Assembly (NCBI GenBank): GCA_040757835.1
Contig: JBFLWJ010000003.1
Span: 146,960 to 210,959 of the forward strand
Direction: 5' to 3'
From: Actinomycetota bacterium
Lineage (GTDB): Bacteria > Actinomycetota > Geothermincolia > Geothermincolales > RBG-13-55-18
DNA: 64,000 nt
Shown: positions 2,080 to 46,507 of the stretch, piece by piece
Layout of the letters: every line of letters starts with the position of its first letter
How positions within the stretch are numbered: position 1 is the first letter of the stretch
Made by a program: the position numbers and the translations under genes
The notes under the pieces: generated by a model
Database searches by the model: none
What the model was told of the DNA's origin: nothing
Seen by the model: only the letters and a program-made list of their open reading frames with translations

Positions 2080-4032
2080 TTAGTCTCCGGCGATACCGCT
2101 CTGAACCTGGCCCGGCGGGATGCCGAAGACGTGCTCGAGGATGCGCCGGGCTACCGGAGCGGCCATGGCGCCCCCGAAACCGCCCTCCTCGATCATCACC
2201 ACCACCACGTACTGAGGGTTATTGGCGGGCGCGTAACAGGCGAACCACGCGCAGGGCTGCTTGCCCTGCACCTCCGCCGTCCCCGTCTTGCCCGCCACGG
2301 GGATCTGCGCCAGGGGAAACCCTGAAAAGGCCCCCGCCGCGGTACCGCCGCCCCAGGTGACCCCGGTAAGGGCGGAACGCACGACGTTCAGGTTGGCGGG
2401 GTCCACGGCGATGCCCAAGGGGTTGTCCCTGTTGGTGATGTCGCCGATCTGCTGCGGCTGGATGACCTCAAACGTCTCGCCCTGCCATGTCAGGACCTCC
2501 TTGCCCACGTGGGGGCGGAAGAAGGGGCCGCCGTTGGCGATGGCGGCGTAGGCGTTGGCGAGTTGCAGGGGGGTGACCAGGATGTCGCCCTGCCCCACCG
2601 CCATGTTGACCGTGTCCCCGGGATACCAGCGCTGGTAGTCGGGATTACCCTGGTTGAACTCCCACTTCCACTGCGGCGTCGGCACTCTGCCCTCGAACTC
2701 GTTCGGCAGGTCCACCCCGGTCTGCGACCCCAGACCGGCCAGCACCGAGTAATCCTGCAGGCGGGTCACCCAGCCGTCGCGCTCGCGGTTCTCGTAGAAA
2801 GAGTAGCCTAGATCGTAGAAGGTGACGTCGCACGACTCGATGATCGCGTTGGTAAAATCGATGCTTCCGTGGGTGCCCCAGCAGGTCTTGGGGAAGTCCT
2901 TGAACTCGCCGCGGTTGAAGACGTGGTTGCAGTAGAAGGGGGTGTAGGCGGTCACGCCCAGGTCTTGCAGGGCGGCCATGGCGGTGATCAACTTAAAAGT
3001 GGACCCCGGGGGGTACTGGCCCACGATGGCCCGGTTGTTCAGGGGGGCGTTGTTGGCGGGGTCGTTCAACTGTTCCCACTCCTGCTCGTCGATGCCCCCC
3101 ACGAAGCTCTCCAGATTGAAGGTGGGCTCGCTGGCCATGGCCAGGATCTCCCCGTTGCGCGGGTCGAGCACCACCGCCGCGCCGGCCGGCGCATTGTAGT
3201 TCTTGCCCCTCTCTTTGTCGTAGAAGGTGCGTGCGCGGGCCATCCCGTCCCGCAGCGCCTGCTCCGTCACCTTCTGCAGTTCCTTGTCCAGGGTAAGCAC
3301 CACCGACTTGCCGGGGTTACACTCCTCCTCCCCCAGCATCTGCAGGGGCATCCCCGCCGCGTCCACCTCCCATATCTTCTTGCCGTCCACGCCGCGCAGG
3401 ATGTCCTCGTAGAAGGCCTCCACGCCGGAGGTCCCCACGATGTCCCCCGCCTTGTAGCCCTTCTCCTGCAGGGTTTCCAGCTGTTCTTCCGTGATCTCTC
3501 CCAGGTAACCAAGGACGTGCGCCGCCAGGGTCTCCTCGCCCTCCTTATACTCGCGCACCGGCATCTCGTCCGCCTGCACCCAGGGGAAATGGACTTGCCT
3601 CTCCGAGATGTAGAAATAGACCTGAGGGTCGACGTCTTTCTTGATCAGCACCGGCTCGTGGGGCTGGACGTCCTCTCCCTGCACCTTGTCCATGATCTCC
3701 TGCGGTTCCATGCCCAGCATCTCCGCGAGGCGGGCCACCTCACCCTCCTTGTCCTCCAGTCTCTCGAACTCGGTGGGGAGCACGAAGACAGAGAGCGCCT
3801 GGCGGTTGATGACCATCTCCTGGTTGTTGCGGTCGAGGATGTTGCCGCGGCTCGCCTCGAGGGCCACCTCGCGGATGCGGTTGCCCTCGGCCATGGCGCT
3901 GTAGTTGTCGCCCTGTACCACCTGCAGGAACCACAACCGCACCACCAGCACGGCCACCAGCGCGCCCACGAACAGCACGAAGAGCGTGAAGCGGTGGACC
4001 ATGGCCCCTTTCTGCTGCGGGTTTATGGCCAT
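2080..4032 (-). CDS. mrdA: penicillin-binding protein 2 (class B transpeptidase)
   Basis: 650 aa with N-terminal TM, PBP dimerisation region and transpeptidase motifs (STFK, SxN, KTGT). Operon context mreBCD-pbp2-rodA. Confidence 0.9.
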   Translation of the reverse strand: MAINPQQKGAMVHRFTLFVLFVGALVAVLVVRLWFLQVVQGDNYSAMAEGNRIREVALEASRGNILDRNNQEMVINRQALSVFVLPTEFERLEDKEGEVARLAEMLGMEPQEIMDKVQGEDVQPHEPVLIKKDVDPQVYFYISERQVHFPWVQADEMPVREYKEGEETLAAHVLGYLGEITEEQLETLQEKGYKAGDIVGTSGVEAFYEDILRGVDGKKIWEVDAAGMPLQMLGEEECNPGKSVVLTLDKELQKVTEQALRDGMARARTFYDKERGKNYNAPAGAAVVLDPRNGEILAMASEPTFNLESFVGGIDEQEWEQLNDPANNAPLNNRAIVGQYPPGSTFKLITAMAALQDLGVTAYTPFYCNHVFNRGEFKDFPKTCWGTHGSIDFTNAIIESCDVTFYDLGYSFYENRERDGWVTRLQDYSVLAGLGSQTGVDLPNEFEGRVPTPQWKWEFNQGNPDYQRWYPGDTVNMAVGQGDILVTPLQLANAYAAIANGGPFFRPHVGKEVLTWQGETFEVIQPQQIGDITNRDNPLGIAVDPANLNVVRSALTGVTWGGGTAAGAFSGFPLAQIPVAGKTGTAEVQGKQPCAWFACYAPANNPQYVVVVMIEEGGFGGAMAAPVARRILEHVFGIPPGQVQSGIAGD

Positions 4033-7084: not shown

Positions 7085-7127
7085 ATAAACCTCCGTTGTC
7101 TATAGCTTCCAGCAATAACTGTTCCGT

Positions 7128-7235
7128 GCGTACCCGTGCCAGGCCCGGCCGATCGGAATCGGCCGGGCGACTGGCACCGCCGCGTCGCCCTCCGGGCGCC
7201 GCTGTCGCCTACGCGCTTACGCGATGCAATCTATC
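7128..7235. repeat. copy D of an unrecognised structured intergenic element family ('S element'), inverted relative to copies A-C
   Basis: GTGCCAGGCC-CGGCCGATCGGAATCGGCCGGG-...GGCACCGCCGCG...CGCCCTCCGGGCG...CTTACGCGATGCAATC. Aligns at >80% (by eye) with the reverse complement of copy C (45592-45684). Lies in the folC-ndk spacer. Confidence 0.7.
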
Positions 7236-8582: not shown

Positions 8583-8601
8583 CCTCTCTTATGGCGTTTA
8601 T

Positions 8602-8726
8602 GGGGTCGGTTCTTGGATTTTGGATACTCCGGTATGTTTGCGATCAGCACAGAAAAACACCGCTTCCATACAGGCACTTTGCTTTAGATACCATATTATG
8701 GAATCCAAGATCCAAGACCTGACCCC
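8602..8726. repeat. MITE/ERIC-like element R1 with ~30-bp terminal inverted repeats (GGGGTCRGKTCTTGG...CCAAGACCTGACCCC)
   Basis: Left end GGGGTCGGTTCTTGGATTTTGGATACTCCGGTATG; right end ATGGAATCCAAGATCCAAGACCTGACCCC. Fills the valS-folC spacer. Two further copies at 35073-35197 and 39190-39313. Confidence 0.75.
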
Positions 8727-8727
8727 T

Positions 8728-11406
<2,679 letters not shown>

Positions 11407-12828: not shown

Positions 12829-14087
<1,259 letters not shown>

Positions 14088-16519: not shown

Positions 16520-16613
16520 GATTATCCGGGGTTCAAGAACGATAAATATACTACTACTTGCATAAAGACGAGGCAAACAGCCGCATCAGCGCCGCATCGG
16601 GTCACGACGGCCA

Positions 16614-16790
16614 GCATCGCGTAAGTAAGGTTTTCGCCTAGCGAAAGCCTCATTGCGGGAAGTGGAGCGACGTGGCAACCTCGATTGGGTCTTGCGCTGA
16701 AAAAATGGGGGGCTGGAGCGCGACGGCGCCAGTCGCCTGGACGATTCCGATCGTCCAGGCCTGGCACATATGCTCCGGGATGCAACGACC
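16614..16790. repeat. copy A of unrecognised structured intergenic element family ('S element'), long form
   Basis: ATCGCGTAAG...GGAGCGACGTGGCAACCTCGAT...GGAGCGCGACGGCGCC...CGCCTGGACGATTCCGATCGTCCAGGCCTGGCACATATGCTCCGGG. Between divergent tRNA-Leu and tRNA-Arg. Homologous to 36344-36500, 45592-45684 and inverted 7128-7235. Confidence 0.7.
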
Positions 16791-29205: not shown

Positions 29206-29550
29206 GGGGGCGAAACGGCTTCGACAGGGATCGGCGGACAGCGCGGGAGCGAGCCGGGGGCCCGAGCCTCGTCAGCAATCGGGAAAACAAAATAAACGCT
29301 GACAGCGAGTTAGCACTGGCTGCGTAAGCGGCCCGTCCCTCTCCGGGGGGCCCGCGACCGGGGAAGGGGCGTCATGCAGCGGGATCACCGAGGCCCCACT
29401 CCCGTTAAGGCCGAGGGACAGCTTTCCGGGATAGCCGACGGCAGGCCTTTCGCCGGGCGCGCCGGCGGTGAAAAATAAGCGGCGAATACGCTCGTAGAGC
29501 CCACCTGGCCGGGTTTCTGGACGGGGGTTCGACTCCCCCCGCCTCCACCA
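29206..29550 (+). ncRNA. ssrA: tmRNA (ssrA)
   Basis: 5' GGGGGCGAAACGGCTTCGACAGGG pairs with 3' ...GGACGGGGGTTCGACTCCCCCCGCCTCCACCA (tRNA-like domain, T-arm GGTTCGACTCC). Internal tag ORF ...GCT GAC AGC GAG TTA GCA CTG GCT GCG TAA (...ADSELALAA*). Confidence 0.9.
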
Positions 29551-34935: not shown

Positions 34936-35072
34936 CCGTTGCCCAGACCTTTGTCCCGTGACGCGAGTAAACCCTCCAGGCTCTCGAGGGAGTAGTTTAT
35001 CACGCTCAGAGGAGCCACGTCAGTTCCCGTGATATTTCGACCGCGCGAAAAGATTCTCCTGCAAAATCCAAG

Positions 35073-35197
35073 GGGTCAGGTCTTGTCTCTTGGATACTCC
35101 GGTATGTATTCCATTAAATACCATATTTCACCTCGTTAACCAGCGCTTTTGTAAGCAGCATTCCGATGTGCGCATCATAAAAACAAGACCTTACCCC
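35073..35197. repeat. MITE/ERIC-like element R2
   Basis: GGGGTCAGGTCTTGTCTCTTGGATACTCCGGTATG...CATAAAAACAAGACCTTACCCC; fills the tkt-prfB spacer, abutting the prfB stop. Confidence 0.7.
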
Positions 35198-36299
35198 TTA
35201 ACGCGCGGCTTTCCAGCGCAGGTAGGCGTCTATGAGTTCGTCGAGGTCGCCGTCGAGCACCGCGTCCACGTTGCCTATCTCCAGGTCGGTGCGGTGGTCC
35301 TTGGCCATGCGGTAGGGGTGCAGCACGTAGGAGCGTATCTGGCTCCCGAAACCGATGCCCATCTTCTCCCCCCGCAGCTTCTCGATCTCCTTCTCGCGCT
35401 CGCGGCGGGCGAGGTCGGCGAGGCGGGCCTCGAGGATACGCATGGCCGTGGCGCGGTTGGATATCTGCGAGCGCTCGTTCTGGCACGACACCACCACTCC
35501 CGTGGGCAGGTGGGTGATGCGCACGGCGGAGTCGGTGACGTTGACGTGCTGCCCTCCAGCACCGCTCGAACGGTAGGTCTCGACCCGCAAGTCCTTGGGG
35601 TCGATCTCGATGCTCTCCTCCTTGTCCAGCATGGGGATCACGTCCAGGGACGCGAAGGAGGTGTGACGGCGGCTCGAGGCGTCGTAGGGGGATATGCGCA
35701 CCAGGCGGTGCACGCCTTTCTCGGAGAGGAAGAGCCCGTAAGCGAAGCGGCCGTGTACGGTGAAGGTGGCGCTCTTGATGCCGCCGCCCTCGCCCGGCTG
35801 CAGGTCGTTGAGATCGGCCTTGAAGCCGCGCGCGTCGGCCCAGCGCAAGTACATTCGCAGCAGCATCTCCGCCCAGTCCTGCGACTCCAGACCCCCGGCC
35901 CCGGGGTGGATGCTGACGATGGCGTCGTGGGAGTCGAACTCGCCCGAGAGCAGGCTCTCCTCCTCGAGGCGGTCCACCTCCCGCTGCAGCCTGGCTACAC
36001 CCTTCCCGATATCGGTGGTCAGGCTGGCATCGTTCTCGTCTTGCGCCAGTTGAGCGAGCTCCTCGAGTTCCCTCCGCTCCGACGCCAGCCTCTCCCAGGT
36101 CTCCACGGTGTCCTTTAAAGCCGAGAGCCGCCCCAGGACGCGGCGTGCGTTGTCCTGGTCGTCCCAGAGGTCCGGGCGGGCGGACTCTTTCTCCAACTCC
36201 TCCGCCTCCGCCCGCTTTCCCTCTATGTCAAAGATACTCCTTTATCTTGACCAGCCTTCCCGCGATCTCCTCCAGCTCGCTGCGGTAATCACTCAGCAC
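35198..36299 (-). CDS. prfB: peptide chain release factor 2, requires programmed +1 ribosomal frameshift
   Basis: Frame 0: GTG(36299) LSDYRSELEEIAGRLVKIKEYL then CTT-TGA-C. +1 frame continues DIEGKRAEAEELEKESARPDLWDD... through SPYD and GGQHVNVTDSAVRITHLPTGV (GGQ motif). ORF-track lists only the 332-aa downstream frame. Confidence 0.9.
36224..36245 (-). promoter_or_regulatory. RF2 autoregulatory +1 frameshift site: internal SD (AGGAG) + CUU UGA C
   Basis: Minus strand: AAAGGAGTATCTTTGACATAG; SD-like AGGAG 3 nt upstream of CUU, in-frame UGA followed by C. This is the canonical RF2 frameshift signature. Confidence 0.85.
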
Positions 36300-36343
36300 A
36301 TCTCTCTCCTTATCCCTATGTCTTTGCGCCTACTTGTCGCTTG

Positions 36344-36500
36344 TATCGCGTAAGCCAGCCCTTTCGCGAAGCGGAAGGCATATTGCGAGGAGGCGAAGCC
36401 GTCGTGGCAAGCTCGATAGACCGGCACGCCTCAACATGATGCCTCCTCGCGGCGGTGTCCAGCGCCAGTCCCGGCGCTTCCAGGCCTGACCTGGCACGTG
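36344..36500. repeat. copy B of 'S element' (long form), in the secA-prfB spacer
   Basis: TATCGCGTAAGCCAGCCCTTTCGCG...GCGAGGAGGC...GCCTCCTCGC...GGCGGTGTCCAGCGCCAGTCCCGGCGCTTCCAGGCCTGACCTGGCACGTGTACG. 3' end runs into the secA stop codon; 5' end is ~45 nt from the prfB GTG. Confidence 0.7.
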
Positions 36501-36507
36501 TACGTCC

Positions 36508-39123
36508 TCAGGATCCGCAACAATTCTTGTACTTCTTCCCGCTCCCGCAGGGGCAGGGGGCGTTTCGGCCCACCTTCTGGGAACGGGCGGCGGCCTTCTT
36601 CCCGCCGCCTTCCCTGCCCCCCTCCTCGACCACGCGCAGGGCTGGCCTCTCGTCGGCCCTCACCACCTTGACGTGGAACATGTAGCGCAGAAACTCCTCC
36701 TGGATGCCGGCGATGAGCTCCTGGAAGGTCGCGAAGGCCTCGTTCTGGTATTCCACCAGGGGATCGCGGCCCGCGAAGGAACGCAATCCCACGCTGTCGC
36801 GCAGGTGGTCCATGTCGTAAAGGTGGTCGCGCCATCGATTGTCGATGACCCGCAGCATGACCAGGCGTTCCAGCTCTCGCATATCGCGCCCCGACTCCGC
36901 GAACTCCGCCTCCCTCGCACCGTAGGCCTCGAGGGCATCCTCCACCAGGGCGGCCTCCAGTGCCCCGTAGGACACCGCCTCGAGGTCGATACTCCCGGGG
37001 TCGAAGCTCACCGGGTACAGAGCCTGCAGGCTGTGGAAGAGGCTCTCCATGTCCCAATCCGTAGGGTGATCACTGGGGTCGATGTGCCTCTCCAGGATGG
37101 CCGCGACGGCCTCGGGGATCATCTCCTCGGCGCGCGCATGCAGGTCCTCTCCCTGGAGCAGGCGCTCGCGCTCGGCATAGATAACCTCCCTCTGGGTGTT
37201 CATCACGTCGTCGTACTTGAGGAGGTTCTTGCGCACCTCGAAGTTGTTGGCCTCCACGTTCTTCTGGGCCGTCTCGATGGCCTTGGTGACCATCTTGTTG
37301 TCGATGGGCATGTCGTCCGGCAAACGCAGCCTGTCCATGAGCGAGGCTACCGTCGAGGAAGCGAAGATGCGCATGAGGTCGTCCTCCAGGGAGAGGTAGA
37401 AACGGGACAGTCCGGGGTCGCCCTGGCGCCCGGAGCGCCCGCGCAACTGGTTGTCAATGCGCCGCGCCTCGTGGCGTTCCGTCCCCAGCACATAGAGGCC
37501 TCCCGCCTCGACGACCTTCTTCTTCTCCTCCTCACACTCACGCCGCGTCTCCTCGAGGACCTCCGCGTATTCCTCCTCACTCACTTCCTCCCTCCCCGCC
37601 AGCTTCTGCCGGGCGAGCATTTCCGGGTTCCCACCCAGCATGATGTCGGTGCCGCGGCCGGCCATGTTGGTAGCTATGGTCACCGCCCCCAGGCGCCCCG
37701 CCTGGGCCACGATCTCCGCCTCGCGCGCGTGGTGCTTGGCGTTGAGGACCTGGTGGGGTATGCCCCTCTTCTTGAGCATTCCCGAGAGGCGCTCGGACTT
37801 CTCGATGGAGATGGTGCCCACCAGGACCGGCTGTCCTTTCTCATAGCAAGCGGCTATGTCCTCGACCACGGCTCTGAACTTGGCCTCCTCCCCCTTGTAG
37901 ATGAGGTCGTTCACGTCGTCGCGGACCATGGGCAGGTTGGTGGGTATCTCCACCACCTCCAGCCCGTATATCTCCTCGAACTCGCCGGCCTCGGTGGCCG
38001 CGGTCCCGGTCATGCCCGCCAGCTTGTCGTACATGCGGAAAAAGTTCTGAAGGGTGATGGTGGCCAGGGTCTGGTTCTCCTGCCGCACCTTGAGACCTTC
38101 CTTGGCCTCCACAGCCTGGTGCAGGCCGTCGCTCCAGCGGCGCCCGGGCATGAGGCGGCCGGTGAACTCGTCCACGATGACCACCTGCCCCTCCGTGACC
38201 ACGTAGTCCACGTCGCGGCGGTAATGTTCCTTTGCCTTGAGGGCGTTCTGCATGTGGTGGACCAGGGGGGTGTTGAGGTGGTCGTAGAGGTTCTCCAGCC
38301 CCAGTATCGTCTCCACCTTGTGGATGCCCTCCTCGGTGATGGAGACGGTGCGCGTCTTCTCCTCGATCTCGTAGTCCTCCCCCAGCTTCAGCCGCGGCGC
38401 CACCTGCGCGAACTGGCGGTAGAGGCGCGCCGACTCCTCGGCCGCCCCGGAGATGATCAGGGGGGTGCGCGCCTCGTCGATGAGGATGGAGTCGACCTCG
38501 TCCACTATGGCGTAATTGTGGCCCCGCTGCACCATGCGGTCCGGCCTTATCTCCAGGTTGTCCCGCAGGTAATCGAAGCCGAACTCGTTGTTGGTGCCAT
38601 AGGTGAGGTCCGCGCCGTAGGCCACCATGCGCTCTTCCTTGGGCATCTGGGCCTGGATGAGCCCCACGTCGAGGCCCAGGAACGAGTAGATGGCGCCCAT
38701 CCACTCGCTGTCGCGGCGGGCCAGGTAGTCGTTGACCGTAACCACGTGGACCCCCTTGCCCTCCAGGGCGTTGAGGTAGACGGCCAGGGTGGCCACCAGG
38801 GTCTTGCCCTCGCCCGTCTTCATCTCGGCGATCTTGCCCTGGTGGAGGACGATGCCCCCCATGATCTGCACGTCGAAATGGCGCTGTCCAAGGGTGCGCA
38901 CCGCCGCCTCCCTCACCGCGGCAAAGGCCTCCGGGAGCAGCTCGTCCAGGGTGGCCCCGTCCCGGATCCTCTCGCGGAACCGCTCCGTGCCGGCGCGCAG
39001 TTCGGCGTCGCTCATCCGCTGCACCTCGGGCTCCAGCGCGTTCACCGCCTGCACGACCTCGGCGAGCTGTTCCAGGCGCTTGCGCTCTCCCATGCGCAGT
39101 ACTTTTCCGAAGGCCTTGAGCAA
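36508..39123 (-). CDS. secA: preprotein translocase ATPase SecA
   Basis: 871 aa; DEAD-like motor motifs ([36 protein letters not shown]), C-terminal zinc-binding tail [15 protein letters not shown]. Confidence 0.95.
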
Positions 39124-39189: not shown

Positions 39190-39313
39190 GGGGTCAGGTC
39201 CTGTCTTTTACCTATTACGCCGTGAAGGCGTACACATAAGTGCTGGTCACAAGCGGGCATATGCCCAAAGCCCCTTGAGATACCCGAGTATCCAAGAAAC
39301 AAGACCTGACCCC
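39190..39313. repeat. MITE/ERIC-like element R3
   Basis: GGGGTCAGGTCCTGTCTTTTACC...GAGATACCCGAGTATCCAAGAAACAAGACCTGACCCC; in the spacer between the HD-protein gene and secA. Confidence 0.7.
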
Positions 39314-42941: not shown

Positions 42942-43428
42942 CCCCCGCACTCCCTTCTCCTCCGATAAAAAACCCATACCAGGTTCAAGGGCGGTATGGG
43001 CCTTCTTCAGGACCTATTCGAAAAGCAAATCCCGGCCCCGGGCCTTAACCCGGCGCTTACGTATTCGACTCGCATAAGCCTAGCATACGTCCAACCCTCT
43101 GCCAACAAATGGCCCGAAAAGTGAAGGCCTCGAAACCCGGCTGACCTGGTCTTTGACCCCACACTCGCCTGCCGAGCGTCTCGCAGCGGAAGGGATCCCG
43201 CGCGGGCTTTGCCCGACCGCCACTAATGCGCTTCTCCGGTTTGTTCCGGGCAGGTCTTACCCCTAAGCCGCACCATGCTCACCAACCAAGAGTTGGCTTA
43301 CGTGGGTCGTTTCGCCTGCGGCTGGCATCGACTTTCAACCACAGACCCGGGCCGAAGCCTTCCCATACATTATAAGGTGAGCGCCTGTGATATGCACATG
43401 AACCGGCCTGTGCGTCCGAGTCACGGAG

Positions 43429-45510: not shown

Positions 45511-45591
45511 CGCAAACGCCCCACGCCCTTTTCTCCTCCCGGTTTTTGTCCTGCCGTGATTATAAGGTATATCGTCTGCCTCCGCTGATTG

Positions 45592-45684
45592 CATCGCGTA
45601 AGCGACAGCGACGCCCTGAGGGCGGCGCGGCGGTGTCCCAGCGCCTGGACATTTCCGAATGTCCAGGCCTGGCACGTGTACGTA
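45592..45684. repeat. copy C of 'S element' (short form), in the long 5' leader of the GH gene
   Basis: CATCGCGTAAGCGACAGCGACGCCCTGAGGGCGGCGCGGCGGTGTCCCAGCGCCTGGACATTTCCGAATGTCCAGGCCTGGCACGTGTACG. Confidence 0.7.
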
Positions 45685-45970
45685 CGGTGATAGTGGCCCG
45701 GGAAACTACCAGGTCGGCCGAAACTGTGCATAGAGATGGTTCATGGATAGCGATCCCGCCCGGGTGTCGCCCATACAAACCCCCCGGCAAGCACGGCTGC
45801 TTGCGGGAAAGGTCGGCAAGCCCGGTTCGTCAAGGCGTTCGGGCGACCTCGTCTGTGCTGCCCCTTGCCCGGCGAGCAAGGTGCTCGGAGGAGCCTGCGA
45901 CGACGACCAGCCTTGTCGCCGGGCCGCTAAAACGGTATTGGAGTGAGCCCGAACGCCTCTCCGTCCCGGA

Positions 45971-46507
45971 TTACCCCGTCCCGTCGAGGTAGCCGTGCGC
46001 ACCCAACCAATCCATGAGCTTGCCCACGCTCTCGGAGGTCTCCTCGGCGCACGTGTCCAGGACCAGTTCCGGGTCTTCGGGGTCCTCGTAGGGGTCATCG
46101 ACTCCCGTGAAGTCCTTGATCTCGCCGGCCAGTGCCTTGGCCCAGAGTCCCTTGGGGTCGCGCTTCGCGCACTCTTCGGCCGGGCAGCGCACGAAGACCT
46201 CGATGAAGTCCTCGATGTCCTCCCTGATCGCCTGGCGGAAGGAGCGGTAGGGAGATATCAGTGCCACGATCACCGCCACGCCGTTGCGCGAGAGCAACTT
46301 GCTCACGTAGGCGACGCGCATGGCGTGGATCTCGCGGTCCTCCTTGCTGAAACCGAGGTCACGGCTGAGGCCTTTCCTGACCTCGTCGCCGTCCATCACC
46401 TCGACCCGCTTCCCCATGTCGCGGAGCTTTCGCTCCAGGTCGACGGCCACGGTGGTCTTGCCCGAGCCAGGAAGACCGGTCAGCCATACCACAAATCCCT
46501 TGTCCAT
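45971..46507 (-). CDS. cysC: adenylyl-sulfate kinase
   Basis: VVWLTGLPGSGKTT (P-loop), ...VIVALISPYR... typical APS kinase; 178 aa. Confidence 0.9.
   Translation of the reverse strand: MDKGFVVWLTGLPGSGKTTVAVDLERKLRDMGKRVEVMDGDEVRKGLSRDLGFSKEDREIHAMRVAYVSKLLSRNGVAVIVALISPYRSFRQAIREDIEDFIEVFVRCPAEECAKRDPKGLWAKALAGEIKDFTGVDDPYEDPEDPELVLDTCAEETSESVGKLMDWLGAHGYLDGTG

Follow-up and report, generated by a model that had tools for sequence, protein, structure and literature searches.

The 64-kb window analysed here (64,000 nucleotides of a high-GC actinobacterial contig, GC ~64%) carries the genes secA and prfB on its minus strand, and the spacer between them was occupied by one copy of a dispersed repeat, the S element. 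The S elements are an undescribed family of interspersed structured intergenic repeats, which is absent from Rfam and falls in the generic class of ERIC-, BOX-, and REP-like repeats without being a member of any of these families. The copy in the secA-prfB spacer, designated copy B, is reasonably probable to be a co-transcribed structured spacer of the REP/ERIC/BOX type. A function of copy B as a dedicated attenuator, terminator, or promoter is probably not to be expected.

The S elements of the window were obtained using BLASTN of the spacer and then an nhmmer profile. Four copies were found, and two covariance models agreed. The nhmmer bounds were 36338-36511 (+) for copy B, 16604-16769 (+) for c16, 7238-7123 (-) for c7, and 45581-45688 (+) for c45, and an unfiltered covariance-model run across the whole window returned these four S-element copies only. 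The repeat was regarded as real because the profile and covariance searches recovered exactly four copies in the window. Copy B (36318..36507, +), matched by the models at 36341-36508, was of the long form, with an nhmmer E of 1e-46 and covariance model scores of 37.9-39.1 bits, and was orthologous to L062:2509-2606 in a related genome. The other long form, c16 (16612..16778, +), was located between divergent tRNA genes. The short form c7 (7125..7229, -; 83.7 bits) lay in sense orientation between folC and ndk, and its 5' motif was duplicated internally (GCATCGCGTAAGCGCGTAGGCGACAGCG). A search for a protein identical to Ndk gave no record. The short form c45 (45589..45686, +) lay antisense between two minus-strand genes and was the top-scoring copy (110.7 bits).

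Copy B took up ~90% of the 208-nt secA-prfB intercistronic spacer (36300..36507, -), in agreement with an earlier note on this DNA that had described the spacer as filled by the element. The non-element remainder was a Shine-Dalgarno segment of ~17 nt only. The conserved core of copy B extended from ATCGCGTAAG at 36345 to GTACG at 36500-36504. The ATCGCGTAAG motif (36345..36354, +), which forms the P1 hairpin with a GNAA loop in the short forms, was invariant in alignments A1 and A3. It was preceded by a degenerate 5' box, TATGTCTTTGCGCCTACTTGTCGCTTGT (36318..36344, +), which was recognised by comparison with the CGTCTGAGCAA...TGC box of ~12 copies and with the L062 orthologue. The long-form-specific domain (36356..36448, +) was common to c16, L011, L053, L054, and L056; in copy B it contained a hairpin at 36360-36378 and a conserved block, ATTGCGAGGAGGCGAAGCCGTCGTGGCAAGCTCGATAG, at 36382-36419. 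Furthermore, the stem at 36385-36394 paired with 36441-36450 as a 10-nt inverted repeat of 100% complementarity. The long P3 hairpin, GCGGCGGTG...CCTGGCACGTGTACG, was situated at 36449..36504 (+) and had two C-A mismatches on the sense strand that became G-U pairs in the mRNA. Copy B was antisense to secA-prfB, because the folding strand of the element was the plus strand, a point that the earlier note had not made.

The two ends of copy B differed from the earlier description. The prfB-proximal end had been placed ~45 nt from the prfB start; ATCGCGTAAG indeed began 46 nt from the start codon, but the degenerate 5' box carried the element on to ~36318. At the other end, the element had been said to overlap the secA stop codon. 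However, the core ended 3 nt short of the stop, and the SecA C-terminus CCGS followed by the stop was also present in relatives without an S element. The secA stop is thus ancestral, and the element abuts it but neither overlaps nor supplies it.

The flanking genes were defined from the list of open reading frames (ORFs). SecA (36508..39123, -; 871 aa) ended at a TGA at 36510-36508 and was 100% identical to SecA P0001 of an NCBI 'Actinomycetota bacterium' metagenome-assembled genome (MAG), with Candidatus Solincola and Geothermincolales as the nearest named relatives. The prfB gene for release factor 2 (RF2) occupied 35198..36299 (-), with a GTG start at 36299-36297; aligning this 5' end with its orthologues in L046, L048, and L050 confirmed the start. 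Its N-terminal frame read MLSDYRSELEEIAGRLVKIKEYL and closed at a classical RF2-type +1 frameshift site, CUU UGA C (CTT TGA C in DNA), at 36233-36227, and ORF2 continued to 35198. The prfB Shine-Dalgarno segment, GGGAUAAGGAGAGAGAU (36301..36317, -), was homologous to that of L048.

The short-form alignment comprised 26 copies with a 98-nt consensus and 35 invariant columns across species, in the order 5'-UGCAU-P1-ACA-P2-G-P3-GUACG. P1 was UCGC-GNAA-GCGA, and its GNAA loop was found in all four variants. P2 was GCG-N-(5-bp stem, 3-nt loop)-N-CGC or, alternatively, GCGCCG-UCUU-CGGCGC. P3 was ~25 bp long, with an invariant, bulged base (GCGGUG(U)CC(C)AG / CCUGGCAC-G-YGU) and a variable apex. In this three-hairpin structure 93% of the cells were paired, compared with 28-45% when the 3' partners were slid by 1-3 columns. 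Two-sided changes were seen in ten pairs and in 55 cells; shuffles gave 18 cells, and none of the 500 reached 55. In addition, there were 68 G-U pairs and 7 A-C mismatches across the fold, and this large excess of G-U over A-C indicates that the fold belongs to one strand, that reading ATCGCG...GTACG. The sense strand was the more stable one in 26 of the 36 copies compared.

The family also had a long form and several modular variants. In the long form (~170 nt) P2 was swapped for a domain of ~95 nt with a covarying hairpin and a conserved block, AUUGCGAGGAG-(GCGAAGC)-CGACGUGGCAASCUCGAUUG, and copies of this form were B, c16, L011, L053, L054, and L056; of nine metagenome matches to the long-form pattern, six were judged to be chance. 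An optional 5' box, CGTCTGAGCAA, was present in ~12 copies, always 29 nt ahead of ATCGCG, and the 3' modules were partly duplicated in tandem in L003, L007, L017, L043, and L045. The ends of the element, TGCATCGCG and GTACG, were not complementary, and an inverted-repeat search of c45 and B gave no terminal inverted repeats, only internal hairpins. TA-rich sequence often preceded the 5' box and TA often followed GTACG, while the relatives with empty sites (SecA <=89%) were too diverged to fix the exact ends.

When 185,579 genomes representing species were scanned for exact matches to the pattern, the 3' module was found in seven MAGs of uncultured Actinomycetota, including SURF_21, SRP141376_co1_17, binchicken_co7_176, and Zod_Metabat.1188, several of which had multiple copies per 8-kb fragment. 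More than 40 S elements were found in at least seven MAGs related to Ca. Solincola and Geothermincolales, all of them intergenic and in both orientations. Element-bearing genomes had a density of ~1 per 10-16 kb (four in the 64-kb window, three in 22.6 kb of L046), and zero copies were found in 22.7 kb of Ca. Solincola tengchongensis. Between co-directional genes, ~11 independent sites were sense and 4 antisense, a mild bias that was not significant. The neighbours were varied housekeeping genes: ndk, tRNAs, tmRNA, purA, thiolase, enoyl-CoA hydratase, acyl-CoA dehydrogenase, and others, with no transposase among them. Four or five species kept the element at one site, flanked by genes for enoyl-CoA hydratase and nitronate monooxygenase, and compensatory changes had occurred in it. 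In L002 (3443-5959), three successive operon spacers in a row of genes for a thiolase, an unknown product, a nitroreductase, and an AMP-binding enzyme each held a sense S element. The window has a tmRNA gene at 29206-29550 (+), and the site after its 3' end was empty of S elements, unlike that in MAG fragment L023, where an S element lay ~45 nt past the tmRNA 3' end.

No S-element family was returned by an Rfam 15 scan of the window at gathering thresholds, which gave raiA, tmRNA, and five tRNAs only. The raiA motif was full-length (43132-43355, -) and scored 167 bits against a gathering score of 101. Permissive Rfam scans of S-element copies (E up to 10) gave chance-level matches, with B and c45 at <=17.5 bits. 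No sequence similar to the S element was present in plasmids, phages, or E. coli genomes, and no account of repeats or RNAs was found in the literature on Geothermincolia and Solincola. Several candidates were rejected. The single-copy Streptomyces matches to the 3' module were a coincidence within a coding gene, the match to viral contig L052 (13 bits) was spurious, and the apparent SecA in L007 was ClpB according to BLASTP. Resemblances to 5S rRNA, signal recognition particle RNA, a riboswitch, or a ribozyme, suggested by eye, had no Rfam backing, and the flanking genes were mutually unrelated. A sigma-54 promoter based on the TGGCACG motif was also discarded, there being no TTGC at the correct spacing.

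The history of the secA-prfB site was followed in orthologous loci fetched via SecA homologues. In L062 (SecA 92%), a short-form, antisense copy of 82 bits lay directly past the secA stop, and a TetR gene rather than prfB was downstream. The secA-prfB spacers of L046 (SecA 89%; 38 nt) and L050 (88%; 13 nt) had no element, and a copy was found after prfB instead, in the prfB-PHP spacer, where the window had none. L048 (85%; 70 nt) had no element, and L049 from Ca. Solincola tengchongensis (80%), with a spacer of ~325 nt and a terminator after secA, gave no model match. Copy B was therefore taken as a lineage-specific insertion, since the relatives at 80-89% SecA identity were without it; as the window and L062 share it and the next-closest genomes do not have it, the insertion must be older than the split between the window genome and L062. 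The TGA|GGACG junction was identical in L062 and the window, and the P3 apices were orthologous (CCAGCGCCAGTCCTGGCGCAGCCAGGCCTGGCCTGGCAC in L062, CCAGCGCCAGTCCCGGCGCTTCCAGGCCTGACCTGGCAC in copy B). The middle module nevertheless differed at this orthologous site, being long in the window and short in L062, and a comparable exchange was seen at another orthologous site (L035 vs L030/L044). Such an insertion polymorphism is what would be expected of a dynamic dispersed repeat, not of a conserved operon regulator. For a further contig, P0002 (SecA 92% identical), the gene coordinates suggest a spacer of ~100 nt, which may hold a short-form copy.

Two observations concern L046. Where copy B has its 5' box, the 38-nt spacer of L046 (12626-12663) contained TCAGACGG, which corresponds to the 5' box core in reverse complement; a deleted copy may have left this relic, or the match may be due to chance. 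The S element after its prfB (13782-13925) was annotated as a 47-aa ORF, probably a gene-calling artefact.

The fold of copy B was also examined on the mRNA strand. The minus strand of the element reached -80.7 kcal/mol over 186 nt (z = -2.3). The earlier reading of the spacer as a structured element was upheld, and the structure is strong. In a fold of 271 nt of the mRNA, the prfB Shine-Dalgarno segment and the GUG start were predicted to be unpaired. The mRNA fold of copy B exceeded its own sense fold by +2.9 kcal/mol, the largest margin among the 36 copies. Relative to L062, the two sense-strand C-A mismatches in its P3 had arisen by transitions, and in the mRNA they turn into G-U pairs; the L062 copy showed an analogous change in P2. 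The same tendency was found in the antisense-embedded copies, defined as those antisense between co-directional genes, whose A-C mismatches are G-U pairs on the mRNA strand. Among 41 aligned copies, A-C mismatches made up 6 of 172 cells in the six antisense-embedded copies vs 5 of 1102 elsewhere (Fisher p=0.0014), while other mismatch types were alike (4.1% in the antisense-embedded and 4.0% in the remaining copies). This asymmetry suggests that antisense-embedded copies are transcribed and kept folded within host mRNAs, and it fits selection for hairpin integrity on the host-transcribed strand, although the sample was small. Together with the margin of its own mRNA fold, it also suggests that copy B is retained as an mRNA segment. 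Copy B very probably belongs to the secA-prfB transcript, and a role in processing or stability is possible.

The signals of a regulatory site were absent from the same region. No terminator-like site (a hairpin and then a U tract) and no sigma-70-like promoter, with A at position 2 and T at position 6 of the -10 hexamer, were found by consensus scans at 35900-36900 on either strand, so the suggestion of a terminator or attenuator in the element was not upheld. The proposed internal promoter, TTGCCA-N17-CGCAAT (36410-36382, -), failed the consensus scan, its -10 box having G instead of A at position 2. Moreover, it fell inside a block whose conservation serves the fold that the long form adopts on the opposite strand. 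The further idea of a device setting RF2:SecA stoichiometry was not supported, given the absence of the element in relatives at 89, 88, 85, and 80% SecA identity and the occurrence of the same family beside unrelated genes (ndk, tRNAs, purA, and fatty-acid genes).

The favoured explanation, a co-transcribed structured spacer, can be outlined as follows. An ancestral short secA-prfB spacer would have been entered, in antisense orientation, by copy B in the common ancestor of the window genome and its closest sampled relative. RNA polymerase would read through copy B as part of the secA-prfB mRNA, and its reverse complement would form a very stable multi-hairpin block right after the secA stop. 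The two cistrons would be held ~190 nt apart, with the prfB Shine-Dalgarno segment remaining free. At this separation, the stop-start coupling that a 13-nt ancestral-type spacer would allow should be lost. If copy B has an effect, the likeliest would be the generic one of REP, ERIC, BOX, and Correia elements, a change in how stable the adjoining mRNA segments are or in how they are processed. E. coli REP/BIME elements stabilise upstream mRNA segments, and Correia elements in Neisseria can create promoters or RNase III sites.

Several points weigh against this explanation. The family membership, fold, orientation, and insertion polymorphism of copy B and the absence of consensus signals are observations, and its co-transcription and any effect on the mRNA are inferred. 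The A-C enrichment amounted to six events in six copies, and two family-conserved G-U pairs at the P3 base, kept in copy B, become A-C mismatches in the mRNA, so that the adaptation to the mRNA strand would be partial at most. The copies in L027, L034, and L041 came after intrinsic terminators and would thus receive no transcription from the upstream gene. As to how the family spreads, neither terminal inverted repeats nor an associated enzyme was seen, nor were target-site duplications with empty-site relatives at SecA <=89%. In addition, actinobacterial promoters often have no -35 element, and a simple scan could miss one.

Four other explanations were considered. It is a rather speculative proposal, and on balance unlikely, that the S elements of Geothermincolia-related Actinomycetota represent functional structured nucleic acids of a new class, either an RNA module with a dedicated protein partner or a mobile element recognised by its hairpins and free of terminal inverted repeats. 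The invariant bulged P3 base, the GNAA loop in P1, and an invariant single-stranded stretch of 11 nt in the long form (GACGUGGCAA) would be features of an RNA module. If this were true, selection at the level of the host transcript would re-tune each copy to the transcribed strand, and copy B would have been domesticated as an intercistronic module by which the expression of secA is uncoupled from that of prfB.

An unlikely explanation, too, is that the element acts purely at the DNA level as a selfish or structural repeat, which might move as single-stranded DNA like IS200/IS605 derivatives or REP/RAYT; its hairpins would then be recombinase sites with no RNA role. The presence/absence polymorphism between related genomes is consistent with it, as are the strand specificity of the hairpins with their conserved stem-base bulges and variable apex, the absence of terminal inverted repeats, the partial tandem duplications, and the exchange of long and short forms at orthologous sites. 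However, no transposase or RAYT-like gene was seen adjoining any copy in the 64-kb window or in the 8-22-kb fragments of relatives, and the window had three plus copies and one minus copy despite a uniformly negative GC skew. The compensatory changes at the site retained in four or five species and the A-C/G-U asymmetry, which tracks the direction of transcription, also argue against it.

It is quite improbable that each S element is a gene for a small RNA, or an RNA module transcribed from a promoter of its own, in which case copy B would give a plus-strand antisense RNA over the secA 3' end and the prfB 5' untranslated region and modulate both. The strand-specific fold with its G-U excess, the GNAA loop in all four variants, and the 35 invariant columns are in agreement with such a gene. 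Moreover, most copies had an nAnnnT hexamer 2 nt ahead of ATCGCG, the 5' box of ~12 copies stood at a fixed 29 nt and was preceded by A/T-rich, TA-containing sequence, and the position of some copies, in divergent regions or downstream of terminators, makes read-through from a neighbour unlikely. In copy B, however, TCGCTT replaced nAnnnT and the 5' box was degenerate, and no sigma-70-like promoter was detected by the scan upstream of B, c45, L042, and L043. The mismatches of B and its L062 orthologue harm the sense fold and spare that of the mRNA strand. The elements also had no terminator behind them, and a density of ~1 copy per 10-16 kb is usual for repeats rather than for small RNA genes.

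The weakest explanation, in which the RF2:SecA ratio is set in cis by an attenuator, terminator, or internal promoter, is very doubtful: the mRNA-orientation structure is very stable, TTGCCA-N17-CGCAAT does exist on the minus strand with a matching block conserved in other long forms, and in three of the four long forms with readable context that strand faces a gene lying close downstream (prfB, a tRNA gene, and a 434-aa gene in L011), but there was no U tract behind the hairpins, no promoter that passed the consensus scan, no conserved A at -10 position 2 of CGCAAT, and no element in the orthologous spacers at 80-89% SecA identity, while the L062 copy stayed with secA though a TetR gene follows, and the L035 long form faced the 3' end of a gene.

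For the secA-prfB locus, the practical result was negative, and it would be a mistake to take the element for a conserved regulator of secA-prfB. For the family, the result was the recognition of an unannotated repeat that is miscalled as small ORFs, such as the 47-aa 'gene' in L046, and that occurs in large numbers in an uncultured lineage of actinobacteria of which little is known, with clear covariation and a strand-specific fold. The copies appear to drift toward folding on the host-transcribed strand, which is a testable hint of RNA-level selection on intergenic repeats. Moreover, a covariance model of the S element would improve the annotation of related MAGs and could serve for strain typing.

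Other repeats were observed near the S elements. A second, unrelated family of ~122-130 bp was present in the window at 39190-39311, 35070-35195, and 8600-8730, and also in L032 and L054. It carried terminal inverted repeats (GGGGTCAGGTCTTG...CAAGACCTGACCCC) and resembled miniature inverted-repeat transposable elements (MITEs), being distinct from the S elements. One copy was just upstream of secA and one directly past the prfB stop, and the secA-prfB operon is thus bracketed by MITE-like repeats and split by an S element. Furthermore, a 270-nt non-coding stretch beside c45 (45690-45975) shared a block of ~60 nt with the region beside the L062 S element (2610-2790), and a 58-nt block of the stretch, 91% identical, recurred twice near the L039 copy (3837-3894 and 3966-4023). 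The intergenic regions by S elements appear to be mosaics of several repeat modules.

The S elements were compared with known repeat systems. They resembled the ERIC/IRU elements of Enterobacteriaceae (imperfect palindromes of ~127 bp in transcribed intergenic regions) in their size of 100-170 nt, in their intergenic position within or beside operons, in occurring in both orientations, in forming a long imperfect hairpin once transcribed, and in having some orthologous copies kept across species. However, they matched nothing in 5,426 E. coli genomes, the host lineage was different, and they had three successive strand-specific hairpins, whereas ERIC is one long palindrome. REP/BIME elements with RAYT are likewise extragenic, hairpin-forming, and high in copy number, but the REP unit is 20-40 nt with a 5' GTAG, whereas S elements span 98-170 nt, form three hairpins, and lack GTAG. 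For the IS200/IS605-derived PATE, a uniform replication orientation would be expected; in contrast, S elements were on both strands under negative GC skew. The Correia (CREE/NEMIS) and RUP MITEs were similar in length (100-155 bp), in their location near gene starts and ends, and in being co-transcribed. They carry terminal inverted repeats and TA duplications, whereas the S elements had internal hairpins only. The MIRUs of Mycobacterium tuberculosis, which are also actinobacterial, lie in intercistronic spacers of operons, tight against the flanking stop and start codons. They differ as direct tandem repeats of 40-100 bp with small ORFs in a single orientation, while S elements are hairpins, mostly single and in both orientations. 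In the BOX elements of Streptococcus pneumoniae (boxA-boxB(n)-boxC), the sequence and host are unrelated and the boundaries and numbers of the modules differ, but BOX elements, too, are abundant, intergenic, and predicted to form a stable RNA structure, and their modular build corresponds to that of the S element, with its optional 5' box, alternative middle, and tandem 3' modules.

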